Shown: piece after piece, positions 13,601-60,000 of the stretch | Numbering within the stretch: the first letter of the stretch is position 1 | How the letters are laid out: each line of letters starts with the position of its first letter | Origin: Botryllus schlosseri | Lineage: Eukaryota | Reading direction: 5' to 3' | Length of the DNA stretch: 60,000 nt | NCBI GenBank assembly: GCA_051294905.1 | Contig: CM119371.1 | Coordinates: 34,908,001-34,968,000 of the forward strand | The notes under the pieces: generated by a model | The model's input: only the letters and a program-made list of their open reading frames with translations | Database searches by the model: none | Told to the model about the DNA's origin: nothing | Made by a program: the position numbers and the translations under genes

Positions 13601-16600
13601 TTTCTTGGCCTGAAATATAGACTTAGCACCTACACCAGGGCTGTTCAAAAATAACTTTTTTTCCCGTATTCCAGCCATTCACTGATTAAATTGTCAGGTT
13701 ACCCTAAAAAACGCTGCACGCCAAATTTGGTTCAATTCTTACAAGTATAGGACTCCGCAGATCCAATTAAAATTTTCAATTTATTGGGAAAAATTTCAAA
13801 AAAAAAAAAATTAGAATTATTTTGCCAACCCCATCAAATTGTTGAGCTGTCTTCAAAGACGATGCAAAACAAATTCGACTCAATTCCGACCAGTAGAAGC
13901 GGAGTTATGTGAGCTTTTCGATGATAGTCCTCGGATTATCCTTGATCGGTGGATAATCCAAGAATAATCATCGAAAAACTCGCATATCTCCGCTTCTACT
14001 GGTCGGAATTGAGTCGAATTTGTAAATCAAAAATTTGTACGACATATATGTCGACTAGTATTCGCCGAGGGTTTTTCGAAAAGGTAACATAGAGACCTGT
14101 GTCATGCCAAGGGACGTTCGGCCTAGGTCTACCTTACTCCTAGTTACAGAGCTTCGCAGCAAGCTTTTCGAAAAAATGTCTTGGAAATTTGAAATTTCAA
14201 AGTGGGATTTCTCCAAGAGGGGTTACGCGTATTCCTTCAAATTTTAGCGTGACACGGCGCCGTCCTAGTACTTCTGAAAGAAGGCGTTAGATTGAAAAAA
14301 GGGCTTCGCAGTACTGAGATTTTGCATTCCCAGTGTCGGTGCGTTTTTTCTCCTTCAAATCCCTAATCTGCAGGGCAGGACTAAATTTTCTTTTGTAAAA
14401 AGCATAGCGACATCTAGCGACTGAAAAGTTCATGGTGTTGGGGGCGGCCGTCTGAGAGTCGGGTTTTTGACTTGCTAGTCCCAGTAAGGGTGAGGAAACT
14501 TACCATATTACCAACGCGAGACATTCTATGTCACTCGAGCATAGTTGAAAATATTGGATGACTCATTCCATTATAATTTAGCAAATTTTCTGACATTTGT
14601 AATACATACTCTCAGAATTGTCCAATATTTACAAATGTTGTTCTTTTTTGAATTCTGAGTTCATTGAAAAAAATTAAATCGAAAAATTTCCAGCGGTTCA
14701 AAAGATAAGGCGATTCAAAATTCTCATGGCGCTGCATGGCGCTGCATGCAAAAAACTTTAAAGTCCATCATTTTTACCGTAACGATCGTGGAGAATCAAT
14801 TAAAATGCCTAACCATACAATTTCGAGGCCGAGGAATTGAAAAAAATCAACTTTTTCGCTCTAAACTCGAAGGAAAAAGAGGTACGGATGAAACAAAATT
14901 GGAGGGGGGGGCGGACTCAAAAAATCCATGTAGGATTCCATTTACATAGATAAAATTAATGCAAAATGTACTTTAACACAGTATGATTGATAAAAAATTG
15001 GATTATCAAATTATTCTTTATTCCAGAATAGTATCACAAAAAAATTGGTCTTTGCAATATGTAATTGGTCATAATAATAGTAGTCGTGGTGGGCAGCAGT
15101 GCAATGCTGCTCACCGTAACTACTATTATGACCAATTACTGTTGATATTGGACAATTCTGAGGTTATGCATTTCAGCCCCTGTCAAATTGTATCAGACTC
15201 GGATGTGAATTGAAAATGACTCGACTCGACTTGAGTCAAAACTATAAAAGCGAGATTGACTCGCGACTCGGTTACAACCTTGTCGGGCGTCTCCGAACAC
15301 TCACCGATTTCAGAAACTTTTCGCTCAACGAGCAAGTGGAGCCAAACTTTTTCGCCACCAGCGTCATGTTCTCTTTGGTCTGCGAGTCGAACGTGGGGTT
15401 CTCGATGAGGCAGTTCACGAAAATCCAGCAATGGTTCTTGATCTGGAAAAGTAGGCGGCAATTGAGAGAAAGGAATTTAATACAGAACGCTCCGAGTTAG
15501 CTTAGAACGAGAATTATAGCGACAGTTTTTCCCAAATAAGACCGAATTCGCGGGCTCTAGGAAATTAAATTCAAATCCAAACTGGAGAGGAATGCAACAA
15601 AATCAACTTTGGTTCATATGAGACCAGAGCTCACTCCCGCTAGCATGAGGATGGCAAATGTCTGCGCTATCATACAATAGGGGGGGTTCAAAAATGACTT
15701 TTTTTCCTCAAATTCTAATGGCTACTCGATACAATTGTGAGGGGTACCTAATTAAAGCCTGCACACCAAATTTGGTACAATTCCAACCAGTAGCCGCATT
15801 GCTACAGAAGAAAGTTTCAATATATTATAGAAAAATAAATAACAAAAATTTGAAAATTTCCTGTTCACCCCGTGAAAGTGTTAGGTTGTCTATAGAAACG
15901 ATGCTCACCAAATTTGGTTCAATTCCAACCAGTGGAAACGGAGTTATTGCCGTCGAAAAATTTGGATTATGAATAAAATAGTATTTACGGTGACCAATTC
16001 TTTAATTATTTATTATAGTGGTGCCCACCGTAGATACTATTTTATTCAAATCCAAATTTTTTAACGACAATAACTCCACTACCACTGGTTGGAATTGAAC
16101 CAAACTTGGTGAACATCGTTTCCATAGACAGCCGAACACTTCCATGGGGTGAACAGAGAATTTTCTGTTATTTATTTTTATATAATAAATAGAAACTTTC
16201 TTCTCCTGTAGCAATGCGGTTACTGGTTGGAATTGTACCAAATTTGGTGTGCAGACTTCAATTAGGTAACCTAACAATTTTATCGAGTAGCCAGCAGGAT
16301 TTGAGACGCCTATTGCACAAGAAACGAGCTAGCAATTACCTGGAACGGCTTAACGTCGACGCCCTTGCCGCCTTTGTTTTTCTTCTTCACGATCTCCGAT
16401 ATCTTCTTCACCACCTGGTCGGTGATGTAGTCTACATGCCGGCCCCCTTTCGTGGTGGCTATGCTGTTCACAAACGACAGGTGCTGGAAACCCTTTTCCG
16501 ATAACGTGATGCAGACCTAAAAAGGCAGGCGACTGATGATTGTGCTTTGGAGTCGCAGCTAATTTGAGATTTAAGATGATACGTTGTAACTATTGTCGTG

Positions 16601-19600
16601 AGTTCACAACAAACGTTACAGCCGCAGTTTTTTAATCAGATAAAAACCATCACTATAGCGAGTTTTCTTCAGAATTATATCTATAGTTTTCTATCCAAAT
16701 TTGTTTAAAATCACAGATTTTCCAAATTAGACCAGAATTGTAGCTACAGTTTTTCAAAATTAGAATATAATTAGAATTATGACTACACAGTTTTTGAAAA
16801 TTGGATTCAAATTAGAATTACATCTAGTTTTTTTCAAATTAGTTCAAAATCAGAAATGTATCTACAGTTTTCTGTCCGAATTTGTTTAGAATCACAGTTT
16901 TTCCAAATTAGACCAGAATTATAGCTACAGTTTTTTGAAAATTAGAATAAAATTAGAATTATAGCTAGTTTTTTCAAATTAGTTTAGAATCAGAATTATA
17001 GCTGGTTTTTCTAAATTACATCAGAAACAGAATTTTACCGAATTTTTTCAAAATTAGTTTAGCATCCAGAATTACAGCTACAGTTTATTATAAATTAGTT
17101 TACAATTAGAGTCACAGCTACACAGTTTTCAAAATAAGACGAGGATGAATTACAGCTAGCGTCTAGTTTCCAAATTAGTTTAGAATCAGAATTATGGCAA
17201 CAGTTTTTATTCAAATTAGCTTGAAACTAGAATTAGACACAAATTTTTACTGCATTAGATTACGATCAGAATTATAGCTACACGGTTTTTCCAAACTAGA
17301 CTCGAATCAGAATTATAGCTCTACGGTTTTTCTGAATTGGATTAAAATTTGAATTATAGCTACTTTTCTTCCAGATCATATGAAAATTAGAATCATAGCT
17401 ACAGTATTTTCAAATTAGATTAGAATCCTAATTATAGCTACACGGCCTATCGCTTCATATACAGTTCATGTACGAAACCCGGGCAATAGAATAATCTCGA
17501 CTGCGTCAGAGACATTCTGCGAATGGTTTCGCGTCAATAATATCGCACATTGGATATTCTTCCCCCGCGTCGCCGCACGGAATGGCAAGGACGCGGTCTG
17601 CTGATGTGCTGGATAGCAGGCAAAGCCCACACAAGATTTTTGAGATAGTAAAGTACTATCTTAACCCCATCTGCATATATATATATCTAGCTACTACAAT
17701 AGCACAGCAGACACTCACTTCCCAACGCGGATTCACTTGTTCGTACACGGTCTTGTAGGGATCCCCGTTTTCATCCGTGCATTTTTTCGTGTACAGCTCC
17801 ACGTAATCTTTAAAATTTTTCACCTAAAACCAAATCAAAGTCAGACCGATTTAACATAGGAATAGGACGTGGTATATTTTTTATCCTTGACGTTTTTACG
17901 GCATATGCACCCGCCGACGATACACAGACACACGATCTATGCGTATGCACACCATGAGTGTATAATGTGCGTTAGGGTCTTCAAAAATGACTTTTTTTCT
18001 CAAATCGTACAGGCTAGTAGTATTTACGATAAGCACCACTCAACTATAACAAATAATTAAAGAATTACTCACCGTAAATACTATTTTATTCATAATCCAA
18101 ATTTTCGACGGCAATAACTCCGCTTCTACTGGTTGGAATTGAACCAAATTTGGTGTGCAGGCTTAAATTAGGTAACCTAACAATTTTATCAAGTAGCCAG
18201 TACGATTTGAGAAAAAAAGTCATTTTTGAATACCCCTAATGTGCATATGCTACCGTAGGGTGGAGTTTTAATTTCAAAAAGTGCCTTCGATATTTGGTCC
18301 CAAATCTCAAACGAATTACTTCTATCATCATTTCAGGTTCCCGCGCCCTCCAGTGGCCGTGCAATTTCACCGAACGCGCCTAAAATAGTTAATTCCGTCT
18401 TATCTTGATAACCGATTATGCTTGAAAGCTGGTTTTTAGCTTAAAAGCTGCGGAAGCAACATGTTCCTATCTCACTTCCGTAGAACTTTGTCTCGAAAAC
18501 GTACAGAAAAAAAGTTACAAGCAAATTATTGATTTTCATCAAGATATCACAATATTAGATATTTTTGGCTCGTTCGGTTAAATTGCACGGCCACTAGAGG
18601 GTGCAGGAACCTGAAATGACGATAGAAGTAAGGCGCTTTTTCAGATATAAATTTTTCTTCTTTTCACTCCGTCCCAATGCTACTGGGCCAAGGACGGACC
18701 AGATATAGCCTCGCAAGGCTTTCCAAGTCTCGGAGCAAAGGGTCGAATATTTTTCAGCTTACCGGTAACCGAGTGCCATTGAGATAGACTGTGACGCCTT
18801 TTGTTGCCCCGGCAATGTCGTAGGCGCGTCTAGACAGTAACGCCACCGTGTCGGCATCTAATTTGTCCATGCCGAATTTCTTCAAATCGGGCTGAAAAAG
18901 TTCAAACACACAGACTATTAGTCTTTTACACAATACTGCTCAAGTACAGGATACCCATTAAAAAATACCTACATAAATTTGACTTCTTATATGAAAGAAT
19001 AGTCCATTTTGGCATTCTCTGCGTTCAAATTTCTACTATTTCAAAGCTAGCATTAGTAACTTATTAGAATAATCGCCAACTGAAATTATTTGATCAACTT
19101 TACTGCCCCATTCTCAAATCATACGGTAACATAACGTTGTGCTACAGGGGTACATTTCAATGTCATAGCCAGCAAGCCATCTCGAATGCACACAGCTACG
19201 CTCGCAATACGAAATAAAATTATTAAATGTGAATGTTACTTCAGAGATGGTTCATTTCTCGCCGATAATCAGGAAAAAGATATTCTATAACTACTTTTCA
19301 TGCCACGTCTGCTTTTCCGTCGAATCAATCAATCTAATAAACCTCAGGGTCTGTATAAGTTGCGTACATGGTGATATTGGTCGCAATTGGCTTGCGATTT
19401 TACAAACTTTGCATTAAAACCAACGCGCTCATCCAATGTAGATCACAGTAATTGTTCACAAAATTAGCAAGATAAAGTGGGTCATAGGTCGCTTCCAATC
19501 AACTAGCCCAATCAACATTTTGATGTGTTTTTAGACACTATAAATGACACGAATGTACCGTATTTGCGTTATTATATATTAAATACTATACGAAACTGAT

Positions 19601-22600
19601 AAATGAGCAATTAATACCGGGCCAATTTTAGAAATAATTGCAGTGTCTGTGAAATTAGCAAAATAAAGTGACCTCCCAATCAGCTAGAATCATTTTGAGC
19701 TAAATTATAATATTTACAATGTTTTTGATCCCCTAATCACACGAGGATACCATCCATACCTGCATTATTATAGAAAAAATACTATATCGAACTGATAAAT
19801 GAGCCATACGCACTATCTGACATCAATTTCATGCATGATTCCACACATTACCACGGAGACTAGAGCCCTTATCTTCTACCGAAATCAAAACATTACACCA
19901 CCAATCACCGCTGCCCTCAGATCTCATAATCTCATAGAGTCATTGGAAGGGCCGCAAGCAAAGTCCGTCCAGCAGTCACTGGACAGTGGACAACGCCGAC
20001 CGACTCAACGATCAAAGTTGCGTGCAAAGTATCTGCTGGGCCGGACTCGGAAAGCAGCCCGCTTCCTCTAGGCATGGTTGTCATCATTGGGCAAGCAGCA
20101 GATTGAGCGTTGCATTATAAAATCACATAATTGCGACCATTAACCGACAGTTGAGCATGTGATTTCACAATCCCCCCAAGATTAACCCCTACCATCACCG
20201 TAACAATCTTAAACCCACCACATGTCCAACGTCATATGTAGGGTAGGGGTGTTCTAAAATGACTTTTTTCTCAAATTGTACTGGCTACTTGATAAAATTG
20301 TTAGGTTATCTAATTTTTAAGCCTACACACCAAATTTGGTTCAATTCCAGCCAGTAGCCGCATTGCTACAGGAGAATAAAATTTCTATATATTATTATTA
20401 TTATTATTATTTCAAAATTTTCTGTGCACCCCATGAAAGTGCAAGGTTGTCTATAGAAACGATGTTCACCAAATTTGGTTCAATTCCGACCAGCGGAAGC
20501 GGAGTTATCGCCGTCAAAAAATTTGGATTTGAATAAAATAGTATTTACGGTGGGCACACCCATAATATATAATTAAAGAATTGGTCACCGTAAATACTAT
20601 TTCATTGTTGATTAAACTTTTTCGACAGCAATAACTCCGCTTCCATTGCTTGAAATTGAACCAAATTTGGTGAACATCGTTTCTAAAGGCAACCTGACAC
20701 ATTCATGGGGTGAACAGAAAATTTTAAAAATTTTTGCTATCTATTTTTATATAATAAATAGAAACTTTCTTCCCTTGTAGCAATGCGGCTACTGGTTGGA
20801 ATTGAACCAAATTTGGTGTGTAGGCTTAAATCATGTAACCTAACAATTTTATCAAGTAGCCAGTACGATCTGAGAAAAAAAAAACTCATTTTTGACCACC
20901 CCTAATGTAGGGCTGAGAAAAACCTAGTACCGTGACAAATTTTCACCATTTTGCTCAATATTTTGGCAAAGAGGAACAAGATATGTGCTTTTCGGGGGTT
21001 AGATCAGATTAGTTACTTAAAATTAAAATTCGCTAATCCAAAATCCGTGTTCGTCAATCAGCACCGTGTATTTTGAAGCAATTGTGGCCGAGGCAGTTTT
21101 TTGTAAGTCTATTCACTGCAGTGTCAGTGAGGATTATTTGGACAGAGCCGAGAGCAGTGTCTGAATAGGAAGAAAGAAATAGTCTAGACCAGTACCATGG
21201 TAAGGTTTGCTTAGGATATGGCTTAGATTTTCTGGTTACAAAATACGTTAGGGGCAAGGTTACAATTACGAGTCTGGAAATCCATAGTTACGTAACAAAG
21301 CTGGGATATCTAAAAATATTTACAAAAGTTGATAAAACAGCAATGCTTCCGTATACTTACCATAAAACTGATACAAGTGTAGTCCTTTTCATCGTTGGAA
21401 GACAGCTTCAAGGACCCGGCCTGGGCCATATTACCAGTCCATGTCTGAAAAACATAGCCAGTAAGAAACCTAGCTTGTCAATCCTAATAGAAACAAACAA
21501 TTCACGATTATCGAACTTATAATCAGCCCTCAGATCTCATAATCTCAATTGGTCATCGGAACCGCACGCAGCCAAAGCCCGGCCTAGAGTGACCACAAAA
21601 TTTAGAACCAATTACGACCTCGTACTATTGCGGTTAGGAAATGTCTCTATAGAACAGGCTTTGATTGCGGCAAGTTTCCTCAAGGCATTGCTGTCATCAC
21701 AGGGCTTGAAAAAGACTTACACAAAGGCACTTATTCGAGTTTGAGACTAAATATAGAATAGTTGTCATTATCATAAGATTACTATATCCACGTAAGATTA
21801 ATCTATTCATATATATGGTCAAATTTTTGCAGCTATTTGATCAAATCATTGGGTTGTATAAAAAAAAACGTATCACACCAAACTCAACTCGAGTCCAACT
21901 GGTTGATGTCAAGCTGCAGGAGTTTGAATAATTTGAAATTGTTATAAAAATACTTGAAATATATTTTACAAATTCTATTGTCCACCCTATGAAATTGATA
22001 AATTGTCTACAAGTAAAATGCTCAACAAATTTTGCTAACTTCCAACCGACGGAACTGAAGTTATTGCAGATGAAAATTTGGGATACATCAAAAATAACAT
22101 TGACGGTGGGTAATCCCAGAATGAAAAGCACAAATAATTTAGTTTCTACGGGTTGGAATTGCGTCAGATTTGTTTTGCATCGTTTTTGTAGACGACTCAA
22201 CACTTTCACACAGAGTAGATGGTAAACTTTGAAAAAAAAGCTGCGTTTTTTATAATAAATTCAGAATTTTCAAACTCCTGTAGTTCACATCTACAAATTG
22301 GAATTGAACCATATTTGGGCGTGCAGCGTTTTTTTTTAGCCAATCTACCAATTTTATCAAATAGCCGCTAAAATCTGAAAAAAAATGATTTTTCAACAAC
22401 CCAAGTGGCCAGTAATCAAGTAGGCCTACTAATTTTTATAGTATTTCGCCTATTCCTCAGTTTCTTGACAAAAACTGGGACTAGAACACTTCCGATAGCA
22501 ACTAGTTCGACTACATCTGTTACTATTCATCAAATCACGTACCATCTTAAACTTTTTCCTATATTCCTTCGAAGACGTCTCCACAGTGAACTTGGTGCTG

Positions 22601-25600
22601 AAGATATTGCACAGTTTCGCCCCGTATCCGTTACGGCCGCCTGACAACAACAAAAAACACACGTTTCAGCACGAAACGTCGCGAGACTGTCCATCTGCTC
22701 TCGGAAATTACCGGTGACTTTTTTTTGGTCGTCGTCATAGTTACTGGAAGTGAGCAGGTGTCCGAAAATGAGTTCCGGCACAAACAGTTTTTCCTCCTTG
22801 TGCTCCACGACGGGTATGCCTTTGCCGTCGTTCCATACCGAGATCAGGTTGCGTTCTCTGCAAGACAACTAGTTAATATCTATCTTTTCAGAATTATACT
22901 AGAATTACAGCTGTAGTTTCTACCAAATCAGATTCTTGTTAAAATTACTGAACTCGCAAAATCACAAAAAACAGGGATTAGATTGTAATTATAATGGGAG
23001 CAGATAAATATCTCAAAAATTAGATTAGTAATTGAGTTCAGATCATCAAATCAAATCGGCAAATACATGTAAAGCAAGCTTGGCTTGTTTAGCACCAGGG
23101 TTGTAATGACTCGCATCACGACTCGACTCAAGTCATTTTCTCAAAATACGGAAGTGACTCGAGTCGATATGTGAATTGACTCGACTCTGACATTCGAGTC
23201 ATTTTCTCAAAATACGGAAATGACTCGAGTCGATAAGTGAATTGACTCGACTTGGACTCGACTCGAACATTTTTTAAAAATACGGAAATGACTCGAGTCG
23301 GCATGTGAATTGACTCGACTTGGACTCGAGTCATTGCGCGTGACTGGAACCAAGTTATATGACTCGAGACTCAGACGGCCAAGAGCGACGTTTCATTGTA
23401 ATTTTGAAGAATAGTTAAGTAACTACCCTATTGGGAGTTCGTTTATTGGTACTGGTACTTGAAAATGCAACCAGAAACTGGTAAAATTGAGGAAAATTAG
23501 TACCGTAATTTTCCAAGTATAGTACGCCCCCACGTATAATACGCACCCTTAAAATGGCATGCAAATTCTGGGAAAAAGCCTGTACCCATGTATAGTACGC
23601 CCCCATGTATAATACGCACCCTTAAAATGGCATGCAAATTCTGGGAAAAAGCCTGTACCCATGTATAGTACGCACCCTGCATTCGCAGTACATGAATAGC
23701 TGTGTTTTAGTACGCGATGTTGTTCCGTTTTGTGATGTCACTGTCGAACAATCATGACATAACCATCGCTAATCATTATGCAATTAACGGCATTGTCTCT
23801 AATCGATAGTACAGAACAGCCAAAGCCTGCGAGGCCAGCGACACAACGTCTTGCGCACGAGGCCTATTACAGATGCGATTGCTAATCATTATACAAGTAA
23901 CGGCATTGCCTCTATACGAGTGTAGATAGCAGCCAAAGCCTGCGAGGCCGGCGACGCGACATCTTGCGCACTAGGTCAGATGCGATTGCTCAGGCCAACG
24001 GTTATGTCGTGCACACCACGCCTGTTGGAGGTGCGACTGATCAGTGATCACGCAAGCGATTATATTTTGCGCAACATGGCCTGTCCATGAATTAGCGAGG
24101 ATTGCAATCAATGAATGACCTAATTTCGCTCGCGTGCAAACGGCAAACTAACTCAAGCAGGAGATTGCGTGCTGTGCAGACGATTATCGTTAATTGGCAA
24201 CACGCATTTTGGTAATTGGTAGCGCGTTACACTGATAATACGAATTACTGGGCACGATGGCTGAAAGTGATGCGCGATTGGAAACAAATACGAAGAAAAG
24301 GTGTGATTTCAAGTTTTTTTATCGAGGGAGATTTTTTTTCAAGTGTTGTTCCCATGTATAATACACTCCCCCCCCGACTTTAGGGCAAAAAATCATGAAA
24401 ATTTTGCGGATTATACATGGAAAATTACGGTATATTATGAATGCAAACTATTCGATATCAAGAAACAGAGTTATAACAATGGGTTTAACAAGACTTTATC
24501 CGGAAACTGAGCAGTCAGTCATGGGACTCGAACCTCTTCTCGATGACTTGGACTCGGACTTGACTTAGTGGCGAATTGAAAATGACTCGACTCGCGACTT
24601 GACTCGAGTCAAAACTATAAAAGTTTGTGACTTGGAGCCTTGTGACTTGGTTTGTTTGCCTAAGCACTATAACGTTCTCGGCAGGATTTCAAGGAACAGC
24701 AGAAATTAGATTAGAAATAAAATTAGAGCAAAGAAACATTTCCAAAATTGGATTACAATTAGAATACAAGCATTTCGCTCTAATTAGTCTAATTACACAA
24801 CTGAAATAATCCACTTGTCAAGTCCGACTCGCACACCAGTTCCATAAAATCGACTTTTGTAACCCCCTAATTTTGACTTACCCGTTGATCTCAATTTTTA
24901 TCTTCGACATTTTCGGGTCCCGCTGCTTGTTGTCGGCGGCGTTCACCAAAATTTCATCGAAGATCTTGTACAGCCCCGGAACGAACGTGATTTCTCGGTT
25001 TACCATGCCGTTCTCTCCGTCCCAAACCCACATCGGCTGAAATTAATCGTTCAAGAATAATTTGAGGTTCAAAAAAAATAACGAAATAATCTGATATTGT
25101 CAATAGTTAGTCGGTTGATTCATGAATTTTGTCACAAATAATAATAAAAGAGCTTCATGATGTACAGAGGAGAATAATATTATATTCGTATTGAAATAAC
25201 ACGAATATTTTCGGCCGACCCTCGTCCATGGTAATCGTCAGCGACTAGTAAAATGTTCTATCCAATTCTCTACTAGTTGCTGACGATTACCCCTGATGAG
25301 CGTCAGCCGAATATATTCATTATTATTACTTCAATATGAAAATAATATTCGATTCATAACAGACGCAGCAAATGCAAACAGCAAACAATAGTAAAACTCC
25401 ACGAGGGCATAAATGTCCGTGTGACTAACCAGCTGTGTATCTCCATGTTTAGTAGACTGAGATAGCCACCATCAAAATCAATCTAAAACCAGAGGCGGTC
25501 AGTAACTAAGTATTTCTGTTTTGTCAGAGCACTAGGTTTGCATAAATTGATGTCACTTTGACTTCAGTGATAACACTGGCTAATTTGACCACATCTGCCC

Positions 25601-27894
25601 AAAAGAACACACAAATCAACATACAAATACACGCCACCACCCTCAGATCTCATAATCTCATTGGGTTATCGGTACGTCCGCTAGCAAAGTCTAGAATCGG
25701 GTGACTTGGCGATATTGCTCGCAGTCTCACCAGGCCAGACTTTTTATCGTTTTCAAAAGATGAATCAGTTTTGAAGAATTTTTTGACGCTTTAAATAACT
25801 CAAAGGCATCATATTGGCCTTATAATAAAACAGATAAATAAGCAATTAATACCAGGCAATATTTGACACAACTTTCAGGAATAATTGCAGACGACCCAGT
25901 CCCGTTATACACACTACCACAGGGACTAGTGCCATTATCTTCTATCAAAATCCAAATATTTCCATAAAAATCACCGCTGCCCTCAGATCTCATAATCTCA
26001 TCGAGTCATTGGAAGGGCCTCGATCAACGTCCGTCTCGCAGTCACTGGACAACACAGATCGAATCAACGATCAAAGTTGCGTGCAAAGCGTCCGCAGGGC
26101 CAGACTTGGAAGCAGCCTATTTCCTCAAGGCATGGTTGTCATCATCGGGCAAGCGGGCAGTGTAGAAATATTAATCGAAGGCAACATTACTAGACATTGG
26201 GACTGTTTGGAATCATCAAAATTGTATCTGATGAGTTGCTTTGGTTCATAACTTACGTGAAAAATAACACCCGGGTTAGTGTAATTTCTAATCCACACAG
26301 TCAAGTGTTCTTCACAAATATGTCAGATTTTATGGTATTTCATGAGATCATCAACTTGATGTGGATGAGACTCAATATATGCAATCATAAAGGGAGGCCA
26401 ATCGTATTGATAAAGAACCCCCAAGTGTACTTTCCTGCCCAGACAAAGATTCACGCTATAGAATAGCTTGGGGATTAGGGTATTGTAGGATCAAGGTTGG
26501 AAGCAGATTGTATTGACTCGAGACAAGTCACATTTTTTTAGTGGATAGATTTTACTCTAATCACTTCCTGTATTTAATTAGAGCCATTGCGAATAACTCG
26601 ACCAGGACATTAGACTCGAGACTTTCTATAATATTTTGCCGTAATTCAAGTCATATATTTTATTAGTCTTTCTCGGGTGTCTAGCGGTGAAGTCAAGTTG
26701 AGTTTAAGCTTGACTTGAATAATATTCCGTGCTCAAATCGTGAGGAATTGCAGGTTTACAAAAAAACATGTAAAATTGTGCAATTTTCGCACTCACATTG
26801 GGCGCCATTACAACCTTGTAAATGAGTGAGTTTAAACAAGTCGAAATCGATATTCAACACTCTACACTATGATTTGGACTCGGACCTTCTCAGCCTGACT
26901 TATAGACTCGGACTCGACTCCGTGGTGAGTTCAAAGACTTGACTTGACTTGAGTCACGAGTCAAAACTAAAAACGCGATATTGACTTGCGACTCGGAACC
27001 TCGTAATTTGGTAACAGCTCTAGTTGGTGGTAACCGTAATTAACGATCTTACGTAATACAACCCTAAGCCAATTATATACACACAGATTTTAAACTTCTA
27101 TAGCCTAATATATCAGGTTTCGCAGAGAACACAGTCGCGATCACGTGTAACAACACGAATTTCAAAATATTTTTGACGTAAAAAAATTGGTGATGCTTAA
27201 GGTCGGAACAATACTTGATTTTCATAAGAAAGTGCACTCAAGACTAAAAAAACATAGGCGCTTGATAGCAAGCAATATTTGGTCCTTCATGCCCGTGTTA
27301 CATACTGCAGGTCTGAATGTCAAAGTGACTTTTCATCAAAAAGTCTTAGAAAAGCAATAAAACTCGTGTTGAAATATATTTTATGGTACTTGTGGAGGGC
27401 AAGATAGCATTTTTGTGTTTATTTTTAGCAAATGGTGTAGCACCAATAATACGCACATATAGGCTGTTCAATAATGTGGTCTATGGTCACAAGGAAGATA
27501 TGATGTGCAGAAGCAGTAAAATGTGGAATCATGAGCAAACAGCAAAGAATATGTGCAAAGAGATTCGTGAAACGTGAATAACTATAACTGATATCTAAAA
27601 TCTAACAAACAAAAAAAGCCAATTCGAATCAATGGATAGAACCAAACCTGTGTCACAGTCTCAACAGATCCGATGTAAGTATCTGGACGGAGCAAAATAT
27701 GTTCCAACTGTGTTTTCTTCTGATAAATCCTTTCCACAGACATTCGCTTGTTGCCGCCGCCATCTTTTTTCGAGTCTGGCGTCTTTATCATCGGCTGCGG
27801 ACGCGAGAAAAATTCGTGAAGGCCGCGTATTTTTGCAAAAGCAAATAACACTTACCGAGAAGGTCAGTTTCTGTATCTTGTCTTCCGAGTCCAT
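1543..27894 (-). CDS. TOP2: DNA topoisomerase II (type IIA), 21 exons in window, 3' part beyond left edge
   Basis: Manually spliced exons give 2679 nt/893 codons with consistent phases and GT-AG introns. Motifs: [92 protein letters not shown], catalytic [16 protein letters not shown]. Confidence 0.97.
1999..2085 (-). CDS. TOP2: TOP2 exon 20
   Basis: PLTRLLFP...[10 protein letters not shown]. Confidence 0.94.
2854..3002 (-). CDS. TOP2: TOP2 exon 19 (catalytic Tyr)
   Basis: [37 protein letters not shown]. Confidence 0.96.
3040..3445. repeat. Satellite-bearing dispersed element copy 1
   Basis: ~40-bp TAGCTACAGTTTTTTCCAAATTAGATTAGAATCAGAATTA-like array plus ~160-bp conserved GC-rich tail. Confidence 0.8.
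3647..3768 (-). CDS. TOP2: TOP2 exon 18
   Basis: [10 protein letters not shown]...VAQLAG...YHHGE. Confidence 0.96.
4816..5023 (-). CDS. TOP2: TOP2 exon 17
   Basis: [14 protein letters not shown]...[10 protein letters not shown]...RSLPSLLD. Confidence 0.95.
5943..6052 (-). CDS. TOP2: TOP2 exon 16
   Basis: [17 protein letters not shown]. Confidence 0.95.
6343..6482 (-). CDS. TOP2: TOP2 exon 15
   Basis: [10 protein letters not shown]...WKVKYYK. Confidence 0.95.
7791..9824. mobile_element. GACTCGAGTC-family MITE with nested long-TIR element
   Basis: CAGGGTTGCAATGACTCG left end; right end lacks terminal CCCTG; flanked by a 16-nt duplication. Confidence 0.75.
8074..9681. mobile_element. Non-autonomous DNA transposon with ~270-bp TIRs
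   Basis: TAGGGTTGTCCATAATTT / AAATTATGGACAACCCTA; perfect TSD CTGAACAG. Confidence 0.9.
9841..9917 (-). CDS. TOP2: TOP2 exon 14
   Basis: [20 protein letters not shown]. Confidence 0.95.
10122..10247 (-). CDS. TOP2: TOP2 exon 13
   Basis: [13 protein letters not shown]...[12 protein letters not shown]. Confidence 0.95.
10460..11458. mobile_element. Two nested TAGGG-family foldback MITEs (inner 10734-11332)
   Basis: GGGCTGTT...AACAGCCCTA outer termini, TAGGGG...CCCCTA inner termini. Confidence 0.75.
11653..11843 (-). CDS. TOP2: TOP2 exon 12 (TOPRIM)
   Basis: [12 protein letters not shown]...LTEGDSAK...[11 protein letters not shown]. Confidence 0.96.
12150..12785. repeat. Satellite-bearing dispersed element copy 2
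   Basis: Array with ~80-bp dimeric periodicity plus the same tail. Confidence 0.85.
13097..13202 (-). CDS. TOP2: TOP2 exon 11
   Basis: [17 protein letters not shown]...SNKIK. Confidence 0.92.
13251..15280. mobile_element. Nested stack in intron 10: GACTCGAGTC MITE > TTAA-inserted element (13548-14483) > TAGGG MITE fragment (13637-14020)
   Basis: GGGAGTAGCAAGCCAAAA / TTTTGACTTGCTAGTCCC TIRs after TTAA; the host MITE resumes after the insertion. Confidence 0.6.
15305..15442 (-). CDS. TOP2: TOP2 exon 10
   Basis: [27 protein letters not shown]. Confidence 0.95.
15678..16300. mobile_element. TAGGG-family foldback MITE (right end truncated)
   Basis: Palindromic arms similar to 20244-20904. Confidence 0.75.
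16340..16516 (-). CDS. TOP2: TOP2 exon 9
   Basis: [17 protein letters not shown]...VKPFQ. Confidence 0.95.
16620..17610. repeat. Satellite-bearing dispersed element copy 3
   Basis: ~800-bp diverged array plus the same tail. Confidence 0.85.
17719..17823 (-). CDS. TOP2: TOP2 exon 8
   Basis: [11 protein letters not shown]...EQVNPRWE. Confidence 0.93.
17973..18238. mobile_element. Short TAGGG-family MITE
   Basis: TIRs; TSD ATGTGCGT/ATGTGCAT; inserted in a CGGCATATGCAC mini-MITE. Confidence 0.8.
18763..18891 (-). CDS. TOP2: TOP2 exon 7
   Basis: [12 protein letters not shown]...RRAYDIAG...VYLNG. Confidence 0.95.
19912..20093 (-). ncRNA. Intronic box C/D RNA, SNORD97/SCARNA97-like (TOP2 intron 6)
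   Basis: Minus strand: TGCCC-A-ATGATGA (C box) ... GAGATTATGAGAT-CTGA (D box)-GGGCA terminal stem; guide complementary to tRNA-Met(e) GUCUCAUAAUCU. Confidence 0.8.
20244..20904. mobile_element. TAGGG-family foldback MITE (hAT-type)
   Basis: Palindromic; perfect TSD ATGTAGGG. Confidence 0.9.
21361..21444 (-). CDS. TOP2: TOP2 exon 6
   Basis: [10 protein letters not shown]...DYTCISFM; cag/gtaag. Confidence 0.9.
21525..21706 (-). ncRNA. Intronic box C/D RNA, SNORD97/SCARNA97-like (TOP2 intron 5)
   Basis: AGCCC-T-GTGATGA ... GAGATTATGAGAT-CTGA-GGGCT; compensatory stem change relative to the other copies; 3' end 80 nt upstream of the exon 6 acceptor. Confidence 0.85.
22543..22640 (-). CDS. TOP2: TOP2 exon 5
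   Basis: [22 protein letters not shown]. Confidence 0.95.
22712..22857 (-). CDS. TOP2: TOP2 exon 4
   Basis: [11 protein letters not shown]...[12 protein letters not shown]. Confidence 0.95.
23096..24650. mobile_element. GACTCGAGTC-family MITE containing a nested TA-flanked element
   Basis: CAGGGTTGTAATGACTCG start; ~60-bp internal tandem repeats at 23130-23330. Confidence 0.7.
23503..24430. mobile_element. Tc1/mariner(pogo)-type MITE
   Basis: TA-CCGTAATTTTCC ... GGAAAATTACGG-TA; 71-bp tandem duplication at 23518-23680. Confidence 0.8.
24882..25036 (-). CDS. TOP2: TOP2 exon 3
   Basis: PMWVWD...[22 protein letters not shown]; cag/gtaag. Confidence 0.95.
25640..25815 (-). pseudogene. Degenerate SNORD97-like copy (intron 2)
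   Basis: Guide and D box intact (GAGATTATGAGATCTGA), C box and terminal stem degenerate. Confidence 0.55.
25978..26151 (-). ncRNA. Intronic box C/D RNA, SNORD97/SCARNA97-like (TOP2 intron 2)
   Basis: TGCCC-G-ATGATGA ... GAGATTATGAGAT-CTGA-GGGCA, extendable stem CCGC/GCGG. Confidence 0.82.
27648..27794 (-). CDS. TOP2: TOP2 exon 2
   Basis: PMIKTPDS...[29 protein letters not shown]; cag/gt bounds. Confidence 0.92.
27856..27894 (-). CDS. TOP2: TOP2 exon 1 ([13 protein letters not shown])
   Basis: ATG at 27894, GTAAG donor, 61-nt intron; identical in copy 2. Confidence 0.8.
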
Positions 27895-59638: not shown

Positions 59639-59870
59639 ATGGACTCGGAAGACAAGATACAGAAACTGACCTTCTCGGTAAGTGTTATCTATTTTTGCAA
59701 AAATACGCGGCCTTGACCAATTTTTCTCGCGTCCGCAGCCGATGATAGAGACGCCAGACTCGAAAAAAGATGGCGTGTCTGTGGAGAGGAGTTATCAGAA
59801 AAAAACACAGTTGGAACATATTTTACTCCGGCCAGATACTTATATCGGATCTGTTGAGACCGTGACACAG
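59639..59870 (+). CDS. TOP2: Second TOP2 copy, exons 1-2 (59639-59677, 59739-59870); gene or pseudogene, continues beyond window
   Basis: [13 protein letters not shown] / [44 protein letters not shown]; same 61-nt intron; in-frame 15-nt deletion vs copy 1. Confidence 0.85.
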
Positions 59871-60000
59871 GTTTGTTTATTGTTTCTAATCAAGTATCAA
59901 TGGATTCAAATTAGCTTTTTTTTTGTTATATTAGTTATTCACGAATCGCCTTGCACATTCTTTGCTGTTTGCTCATGATTCCACATTTTATTGCTTCTGC

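Follow-up and report, generated by a model that had tools for sequence, protein, structure and literature searches.

What kind of element recurs in the introns of a topoisomerase II gene (TOP2) of Botryllus schlosseri is the question raised by the locus described here. The stretch analysed, referred to as the window, comprises 60 kb of contig CM119371.1 (assembly GCA_051294905.1, positions 34,908,001 to 34,968,000), and positions given without a contig name are positions within it. All copies of the element lie on the minus strand, which is the sense strand of TOP2. They are marked by the 14-mer TGAGATTATGAGAT, which occurs exactly four times in the window, in every case on the minus strand (at 19921, 21534, 25647, and 25987), and which is directly followed by CTGA at each of the four sites. 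With up to two mismatches permitted, shuffled sequences contained 0.75 matches on average, and four matches were reached in 1 of 100 shuffles. The elements are read here as intron-encoded box C/D guide RNA genes of the SNORD97/SCARNA97 family, predicted to direct the 2′-O-methylation of wobble cytidine C34 (Cm34) in elongator tRNA-Met, a reading drawn from sequence to which a probability of about 0.8 is attached. It stands on the observed anatomy of the copies, their conservation and covariation, their match to the target, and their distribution in the genome.

Anatomy and conservation of the intronic copies

Three of the four copies (c1, c2, and c4) are 174-182 nt long and combine a C box of the form [AG]TGATGA with a CTGA D box and a 5-bp terminal stem. 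Their 5′ ends read UGCCC-(A/G)AUGAUGA in c1 and c4, referred to as type A, and AGCCC-UGUGAUGA in c2, referred to as type B; the corresponding 3′ ends are CUGA-GGGCA and CUGA-GGGCU. Both boxes and the compensated stem (UGCCC/GGGCA versus AGCCC/GGGCU) had been described for three copies in the first-pass annotation of this DNA, and they were found again on reading the sequence and in the alignment. The whole genome (495 Mb in 219 contigs) holds 11 intact copies, seven of type A and four of type B. All 11 possess [AG]TGATGA, CTGA is present in 12 of 12 guide-bearing copies (the 11 plus c3), and the C box and D box of the intact copies are 163-171 nt apart. Between types A and B, identity amounts to 75.5% in the 5′ module, 82.2% in the 3′ module, and 43.5% in the interior, so that the earlier description of a guide invariant in all four copies and an interior that diverges agrees with the four exact sites and with these values.

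Comparison of the nine distinct intact sequences (alignment A2, 193 columns) showed that 83 columns are invariant. The invariant blocks consist of UGAUGACA (C box), UGCCU, GAGGAA (the end of D′ and the stem), AUGAC (C′ box), and the 19-column run UGAGAUUAUGAGAUCUGAG, which comprises the guide and the D box and was equalled in 1 of 100,000 column shuffles. These blocks coincide exactly with the functional parts. In the consensus structure predicted by RNAalifold, the terminal stem is accompanied by a long hairpin in the interior; GGAA/UUCC closes this hairpin and directly adjoins D′ and C′. GGAA comes after the D′ box (UAGA or UUGA) and UUCC before the C′ box RAU-GA-C, an arrangement that is invariant in nine of nine distinct intact copies and that probably forms a second, internal kink-turn.

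The terminal stem is fully paired in the nine distinct copies, and two of its five pairs have changed on both sides (UA:4, AU:3, and UG:2 at one pair; CG:7, UG:1, and UA:1 at another). Type B copies present a series from C-G through U.G to U-A, represented by AGCCC/GGGCU in c2, AGCUC/GGGCU in TOP2 copy 2, and AGCUC/GAGCU on contig C18. Over the whole structure, 95.4% of the cells are paired, compared with 29-49% when the partners are slid by 1-3 columns, and none of 500 shuffles reached this value. Both partners have changed in ten pairs (2-4 in the slid controls), a number reached by 6 of 500 shuffles; the covariation score of 0.336, against at most 0.109 in the slid controls, was reached by none of 500. 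A covariance model of our own, R1, built from c4 among others, recognised in the window only the four copies and antisense echoes of their hairpins.

A second guide next to the D′ box was also considered. The UGCCU block lies just upstream of D′ (20070-20074, 21682-21686, and 26128-26132, minus strand), and the rest of the D′ spacer varies. The 11-nt spacer (CAACCAUGCCU or CAGCAAUGCCU) found no target in rRNA or tRNA-Met better than expected by chance, being equalled by 81 of 300 shuffled spacers. For the UGCCU block, the D-loop of tRNA-Met offers a complement, AGGCA, a 5-bp match that is at chance level.

The first-pass annotation had counted four paralogues on the sense strand of TOP2; the four exact sites bear out this number, and the exon map and the spliced joints bear out the strand. 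However, three copies are intact and the fourth, c3, is a relic with mutated C and C′ boxes. It reads AUGAUGC at the C box and GAUAAC at the C′ box, has no GGAA/UUCC stem, and forms a weak terminal stem. Its guide and D box are intact; the last ~60 nt align cleanly and the remainder loosely, and R1 recognises only the 68 nt at its 3′ end (37.2 bits). Copy c3 descends from a full-length copy. In TOP2 copy 2, the orthologue of c3 still reads GAUGAC, but its guide has been substituted at two positions (TGAGATTACGAAAT) and its 5′ half is unrelated. On C18, a loss of 41 nt has removed the C′ box together with the guide and the D box, leaving the 5′ half with ATGATGCC and the 3′ flank in place. Such damage, different in each of the three paralogues, identifies the c3 lineage as a pseudogene, and comparison with these orthologues rules c3 out as a fourth functional copy. 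Over the same period, no base of the guide or the D box changed in the 11 intact copies. The relic thus serves as an internal control that shows relaxed selection at this locus.

The host gene was identified from minus-strand open frames, which encode topoisomerase II. Searches with full-length TOP2 proteins (tblastn) gave 18-21 collinear exon matches, with the highest weighted identity (75%) for the TOP2A-like protein of Styela clava (P0001), followed by 71% for Ciona and Phallusia, 69% for Clavelina, and 62-68% for the arthropod and echinoderm proteins tried. The resulting exon map assigns two copies (c4 and c3) to intron 2 and one each to introns 5 (c2) and 6 (c1), every one of them in sense orientation (Table 1). 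Since the joints 22639>22711 and 22857>24882, with CT..AC ends, are present in RNA contigs of two runs, TOP2 copy 1 is transcribed and spliced as mapped.

Table 1. Guide RNA copies and mapped TOP2 exons in the 60-kb window.
Feature	Position	Strand	Description	Scores and evidence
c4	25978..26151	minus	Type A box C/D RNA in TOP2 intron 2, ~940 nt upstream of the exon 3 acceptor; stem UGCCC/GGGCA, C box AUGAUGA, D box CUGA	Rfam SNORD97 21.6 bits; external stem -16.4 kcal/mol; model R1 182.5 bits
c3	about 25637..25820	minus	Decayed relic of a third paralogue ("type C") in TOP2 intron 2	
c2	21525..21706	minus	Type B box C/D RNA in TOP2 intron 5; stem AGCCC/GGGCU, C box GUGAUGA	External stem -9.0 kcal/mol; model R1 161.8 bits
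c1	19912..20093	minus	Type A box C/D RNA in TOP2 intron 6, ~1 kb upstream of the exon 7 acceptor	Rfam SNORD97 19.6 bits; external stem -17.9 kcal/mol; model R1 174.1 bits
Guide and D box of c1	19917..19934	minus	UGAGAUUAUGAGAU followed by CUGA	
18-nt guide and D box, other copies	21530-21547, 25643-25660, 25983-26000	minus		
TOP2 exon 2	27636..27797	minus	Upstream border of intron 2	tblastn
TOP2 exon 3	24882..25039	minus	Downstream of the intron with c4 and c3	tblastn with P0001; joint 22857>24882
TOP2 exon 4	22711..22857	minus		tblastn; joints 22639>22711 and 22857>24882
TOP2 exon 6	21346..21444	minus	Acceptor 80 nt downstream of c2	tblastn; RNA contig covers 21361-21445
TOP2 copy 2, first coding exons	59639..59870	plus	Head to head with copy 1; gene extends past the window	

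The predicted tRNA-Met target and the SNORD97/SCARNA97 family

The target was examined in the genome's own tRNA genes. A pattern derived from insect tRNA-Met sequences aligned in the literature, in which any 28:42 pair was allowed, matched 32 sites exactly and three more with one mismatch, and its reversed control matched none. All 32 exact elongator tRNA-Met genes carry GUCUCAUAAUCUCA (full reading GUGAGUCUCAUAAUCUCAAGG), and ARAGORN assigned tRNA-Met(CAT) to three of the three loci examined. The guide UGAGAUUAUGAGAU pairs with G30-A43 of this tRNA through 13 Watson-Crick pairs and one G.U pair, and type B adds a fifteenth pair. The fifth guide nucleotide counted from the D box lies opposite wobble C34, so the pairing with elongator tRNA-Met and the assignment to C34 by the D+5 rule, both proposed in the first-pass annotation, hold on the tRNA-Met genes of this genome. 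The same pairing scan found no comparable match for the guide in 18S, 5.8S, or 28S rRNA or in the internal transcribed spacers. Fourteen of the 32 exact tRNA-Met genes are located in one 33-kb array (G000:C15:16979470-17012089), mostly in alternating orientation.

Compared with the Ciona gene given in the supplement of PMC6601510, the tRNA-Met gene differs at 3 of 73 positions, which, together with the TOP2 identities, points to an ascidian tunicate as the host. The pair 28:42 is C28:G42 in Ciona and human according to the available passages of that paper, and G28:C42 in all 32 exact genes of the present genome. The extra 5′ UG of the guide pairs with C42 and A43. Guide and target may therefore have changed together at 28:42, although only two bases are concerned and chance could produce the same agreement.

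Guides with this target are known from human cells. In the available passages of PMC6601510 (Vitali and Kiss 2019), SNORD97, encoded in intron 13 of EIF4G2, and SCARNA97, encoded in intron 10 of LARP4, are shown experimentally to direct Cm34 of elongator tRNA-Met jointly, and these passages bear out the two host genes that the first-pass annotation had named. The interiors of both human RNAs are rich in pyrimidines; SCARNA97 requires its own for localisation to Cajal bodies, and such an interior is treated there as a localisation element and not as family-defining. One candidate each is listed for Drosophila, silkworm, honey bee, Arabidopsis, rape, and Ciona intestinalis (Supplemental Fig. S3C), and the D-box guide is described as invariant. 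The duplication that gave SNORD97 and SCARNA97 is said in the same source to be vertebrate-specific, from which it follows that the split between types A and B is independent of it. Vitali and Kiss was the only paper found to contain both SNORD97 and Ciona. Among the matches listed in literature searches for Top2-hosted snoRNAs (small nucleolar RNAs) and for SNORD97 combined with names of tunicates, none was relevant, and in the Drosophila C/D map paper "Cm34" matched only within rRNA position names.

A permissive search of 7.1 kb against 4227 Rfam families returned SNORD97 (RF01291) as the sole matching snoRNA family. The match extends from end to end (UGCCCGAUGAU ... AGAUUAUGAGAU.UGAGGGCA), in line with the earlier remark that the human RNAs and the present copies have very similar ends, and scores 21.6 bits in c4 (E 3.3) and 19.6 bits in c1 (E 9.5); divided by the 4227 families, these E-values become ~8e-4 and ~2e-3. 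The core guide AGAUUAUGAGAU directly upstream of the D box is exact in 12 of 12 copies and identical to the Rfam consensus. At Rfam gathering thresholds, the whole window gave no match, and the RF01291 model gave none at E ≤10 among the 48 of 68,562 genome-wide candidates that were scored, a number too small to be informative.

Further relatives were sought in metagenome contigs, which were scanned for the combined signature of guide, D box, and stem. This gave 16 matches in 15 distinct stretches. In 12 of the 16, a regular expression found a GCCC-type stem and a C box at 167-253 nt, and one more was recognised by eye; one of the others is cut by the contig end, and two lack stem and C box. 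The Rfam SNORD97 model picks up 6 of the 15 stretches, with scores (23.2-36.2 bits) that all stay below the gathering value of 45. One copy lies between exons encoding UBM and HECT domains of a HUWE1-like ligase (L053, ~2290-2525), two tandem copies 1.1 kb apart are found near SNORD27-like and U61-like matches (L061, minus strand, 26-282 and ~1171-1425), and other copies sit in clusters with other snoRNAs. No TOP2 exons were found beside the metagenome homologues. The family is thus widespread and its host gene variable, and neither multiple copies nor changes of host are peculiar to the Botryllus genome.

Compared with SNORD97, the copies in TOP2 share the intronic sense box C/D layout, the 12-nt core AGAUUAUGAGAU abutting the D box, and the C34 target, and type A also shares the terminal stem UGCCC/GGGCA. 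They differ in the TOP2 host and in the presence of three intact copies per gene instead of one. In addition, the D box is CUGA where the Rfam consensus has AUGA, the guide is extended to 14-15 bp, the length of 174-182 nt exceeds the 142 positions of the model, and a covarying hairpin takes the place of the unstructured, pyrimidine-rich interior. SCARNA97 (formerly SNORD133) has the same guide and target, exists as a second isoform beside SNORD97, and falls within a similar size range (216 nt); however, its 93-nt pyrimidine-rich interior, described in PMC6601510 as serving Cajal-body localisation, has no counterpart in types A and B, the interiors of which form a covarying hairpin with 50-58% pyrimidine and no pyrimidine-rich stretch.

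The non-vertebrate candidates of PMC6601510, which could be compared by description only, belong to the same family but number one per genome, against 11 intact copies in three or four TOP2 loci here. The metagenome genes (L046, L048-L053, L055, L056, L058, L059, and L061) have the GCCC/GGGC stem, the C box, and a D′/C′ kink-turn (e.g., UCC-AUU-GA), and their guide and CUGA are identical to those of the present copies. The interiors of 10 of 12 metagenome homologues are 60-71% pyrimidine, and the other two, identical in sequence, are structured. Haloarchaeal sR-tMet (Joardar et al. 2011, as cited in the available part of PMC6601510) uses the same chemistry, target nucleotide, and D+5 rule, but archaeal Cm34 guides are short sRNAs or lie inside tRNA introns, not in introns of protein genes.

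Genomic distribution, biogenesis, and alternative explanations

The distribution of the guide in the genome is confined to TOP2. A BLAST search with c1 found eight places, all in TOP2 loci carrying copies, and the exact guide with its D box (16 nt) occurs at 12 sites, all in homologous introns of TOP2 loci: four in the window, C1:34974291 and C1:34975191 (plus strand), three on C17, and three on C18. At least three paralogous TOP2 loci exist, two of which stand head to head on C1 with their first coding exons ~32 kb apart. The loci span window positions 1-27942 (minus) and 59639-60000 (plus), C1:34967639-34991302, C18:565758-579966, and C17:1236370-1250829. C17 and C18, at 96-100% identity over the stretches compared, possibly represent one locus in two haplotypes, so the number of TOP2 loci is three or four.

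Type A occupies intron 2, type B intron 5, and a further type A intron 6. The same introns of TOP2 copy 2, which the first-pass annotation had singled out for comparison, contain type B in intron 5 (C1:34974291) and type A in intron 6 (C1:34975191) but no type A in intron 2. Since the positions are homologous in every locus, the set must have been present in one ancestral TOP2 gene and multiplied by gene duplication, and the amplification of the guide in TOP2 proposed at first is thereby substantiated by 11 intact copies. Elsewhere in the genome, guide and D box with one mismatch occur at 11 sites, compared with eight matches of a reversed control pattern, and none of the 11 has a terminal stem together with a convincing C box.

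The two types differ in their position within the intron. The 3′ end of c2 lies exactly 80 nt ahead of the CAG|AC acceptor of exon 6, the distance given in the first-pass annotation, and type B copies in general lie 80, 84, or 94 nt ahead of the acceptor, with 16-nt flank duplexes of -6.0 to -9.0 kcal/mol (four of four copies). Type A copies lie ~680-1000 nt from the next acceptor and have flank duplexes of -12.0 to -20.1 kcal/mol (seven of seven copies); these long type A stems are intramolecular terminal stems. According to the available part of PMC5519232, human C/D snoRNAs favour a position ~50 nt upstream of the branch point, and long external stems can free assembly from splicing. By analogy with this rule, the contrast suggests splicing-coupled assembly of type B and splicing-independent assembly of type A, although it is no more than suggestive because it rests on one evolutionary split.

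The proposed sequence of events, in which assembly of the ribonucleoprotein (RNP), processing, methylation, and the two modes of assembly are what we infer from these features, would be as follows. Once the TOP2 pre-mRNA is transcribed, each intact copy would fold with its terminal C/D and internal C′/D′ kink-turns and recruit the core box C/D proteins, among them fibrillarin, the methyltransferase. Type B, with its classical distance and short stem, would assemble in a manner coupled to splicing, and type A, remote from the acceptor and enclosed by a long external stem, independently of it. The RNA would then be trimmed out of the intron, down to the terminal stem, and its 14-15-nt antisense element would pair with the anticodon arm of tRNA-Met and lead to 2′-O-methylation of wobble C34. 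As for its history, the ancestral TOP2 gene would have possessed three or four copies (A and the now decayed C in intron 2, B in intron 5, and A in intron 6), and whole-gene duplication would have multiplied the set.

The RNA data available for the locus comprise two raw-read runs (~1x on exons) and two contig runs. Twelve raw reads with two start positions fall on 21530-21589, in the 3′ part of c2, and carry three differences, so they probably come from another type B copy or allele. In the contig runs, a short contig covers the 3′ part of c2 (21531-21615, depth 3.8) where neighbouring unique intron bins are empty, and continuous cover extends over c3, c4, and their flanks (25365-26274) at a depth of 5-16, compared with 11-38 on exons. 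The c4-c3 region is thus transcribed. This 3′ kilobase of intron 2 is covered in RNA contigs, and other unique intron stretches are without cover; it could represent a retained intron, an unannotated transcript, or a piece of intron kept stable by a snoRNA-like end on either side.

Several observations weigh against the interpretation as functional guide RNA genes. None of the matches reaches the RF01291 gathering score (21.6 and 19.6 versus 45 bits), and c2, like c3, gave no SNORD97 match at E ≤10. The Rfam model thus recognises c4 and c1, as the proposed family would have it, but at scores below the threshold. The structure tested for covariation was itself derived from the sequences on which it was tested. 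Paralogues agree at 82-95% of positions in the snoRNA bodies and at 62-96% in the 150-nt flanks, and bodies exceed flanks in the comparisons involving copy 1; the lead is moderate, and between copy 2 and C18 the upstream flank is equally conserved. In the contig runs (5-16x over the c4-c3 region), snoRNA bodies are not enriched over their flanks, and a discrete RNA of ~180 nt was not seen in the sparse raw reads (~1x on exons) or in the contig-level data. Moreover, the difference in position and stem between types A and B amounts in effect to a single phylogenetic contrast. As to the Rfam scores, the gathering threshold is a property of one curated model, not a criterion of biology, and the six clear metagenome homologues that the model detects also score below 45 bits, which indicates that the cut-off is too strict outside vertebrates.

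The small lead of the bodies over the flanks also leaves room for the view that most copies are silent passengers, with one or a few functional and the rest recent products of TOP2 duplication that have not had time to decay. The intron-2 type A copy has already been lost from TOP2 copy 2, C17 and C18 may be mere haplotypes, and the RNA data at the locus do not separate individual copies. Nevertheless, this is unlikely, as types A and B are old, judging by interiors with 43.5% identity, yet all boxes, the guide, and the compensated structure have been kept in both, and as the relic, under relaxed selection, suffered damage to its guide, its C′ box, or its entire 3′ module within the same span. 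More improbable still is an action mainly in cis on the TOP2 pre-mRNA, in splicing or intron stability, with tRNA methylation as an incidental effect: the invariant element is antisense to tRNA-Met rather than to TOP2, type A forms its long stems within a single molecule, and the same guide is found in unrelated hosts elsewhere (a HECT/UBM ligase intron and snoRNA clusters). What speaks for such an action is the cover of the intron 2 segment with c4 and c3, at no less than a third of exon depth where other unique intron has none, and a report of intronic snoRNAs that regulate the splicing of their hosts (PMC10324135).

A repeat derived from tRNA-Met, or another dispersed repeat such as a short interspersed element (SINE) or a miniature inverted-repeat transposable element (MITE), might show an accidental likeness to C/D RNAs. 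The plus strand does contain a 13-nt stretch identical to the tRNA-Met anticodon arm, and the surrounding introns are full of repeats. However, copy number and distribution already refute this idea and leave it next to no probability: only 12 exact sites exist in the genome, all of them sense to TOP2 and at homologous intron positions, the eight BLAST places belong to these loci only, the boxes are conserved, and the stems covary. The high-copy dispersed repeat without conserved boxes or guide, named in the first-pass annotation as the contrary outcome, is thus not what the genome contains.

Repeats of other kinds do occur in the surrounding introns. A hairpin-forming dispersed repeat at 25225-25441 is transcribed, with a summed depth of 14,345 and 4,732 in the two contig runs; many of the reads match a ~40-nt core and then diverge, a similar stretch is found in an unrelated locus (L024), and a mir-234-like Rfam match at 25224-25294 reaches 20.6 bits against a gathering score of 58. 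One inverted-repeat element recurs in TOP2 introns at 15649-16328, 18040-18240, and 20240-20900, with stray frames of the type ...PNLVQFQPV... and high RNA-contig depth over the copy at 20240-20900; it looks like a MITE-type family. Intron 3 of TOP2 contains tandem repeats at 23100-23360 and 23520-23660, made of GACTCGAGTC-rich units and two copies of a ~64-nt unit, both with high depth in RNA contigs.

Implications for the guide RNA family in tunicates

That the family is present in invertebrates, including Ciona, is known already from the available passages of Vitali and Kiss (2019, PMC6601510), and the published homologues make the present finding less novel. New here are the placement in TOP2, a multiplication that took place first inside the gene and later along with it, two subtypes that contrast in intron position and external stem, an interior that is structured instead of pyrimidine-rich, and a longer guide. 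Eleven functional-looking genes for a tRNA-modifying snoRNA were missed by threshold-based annotation, and the Rfam SNORD97 cut-off misses non-vertebrate homologues generally.

A bolder proposal is that types A and B arose by an independent tunicate split into two working isoforms, convergent with SNORD97 and SCARNA97, with different assembly routes and with interiors that direct them to different nuclear compartments, and that the TOP2 host ties the capacity for Cm34 to proliferation; this should be taken as speculative and is doubtful at present. In any case, one pre-mRNA that carries both well-placed copies with a short stem and badly placed copies with a long stem would allow a direct comparison of the two assembly routes. 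Tunicates are the sister group of vertebrates, and the guide resides here in TOP2 and not in LARP4 or EIF4G2. The TOP2 host, together with an amplification that began inside the gene and continued when the gene itself was duplicated, indicates that the family changes its host and copy number freely while the guide itself stays fixed.

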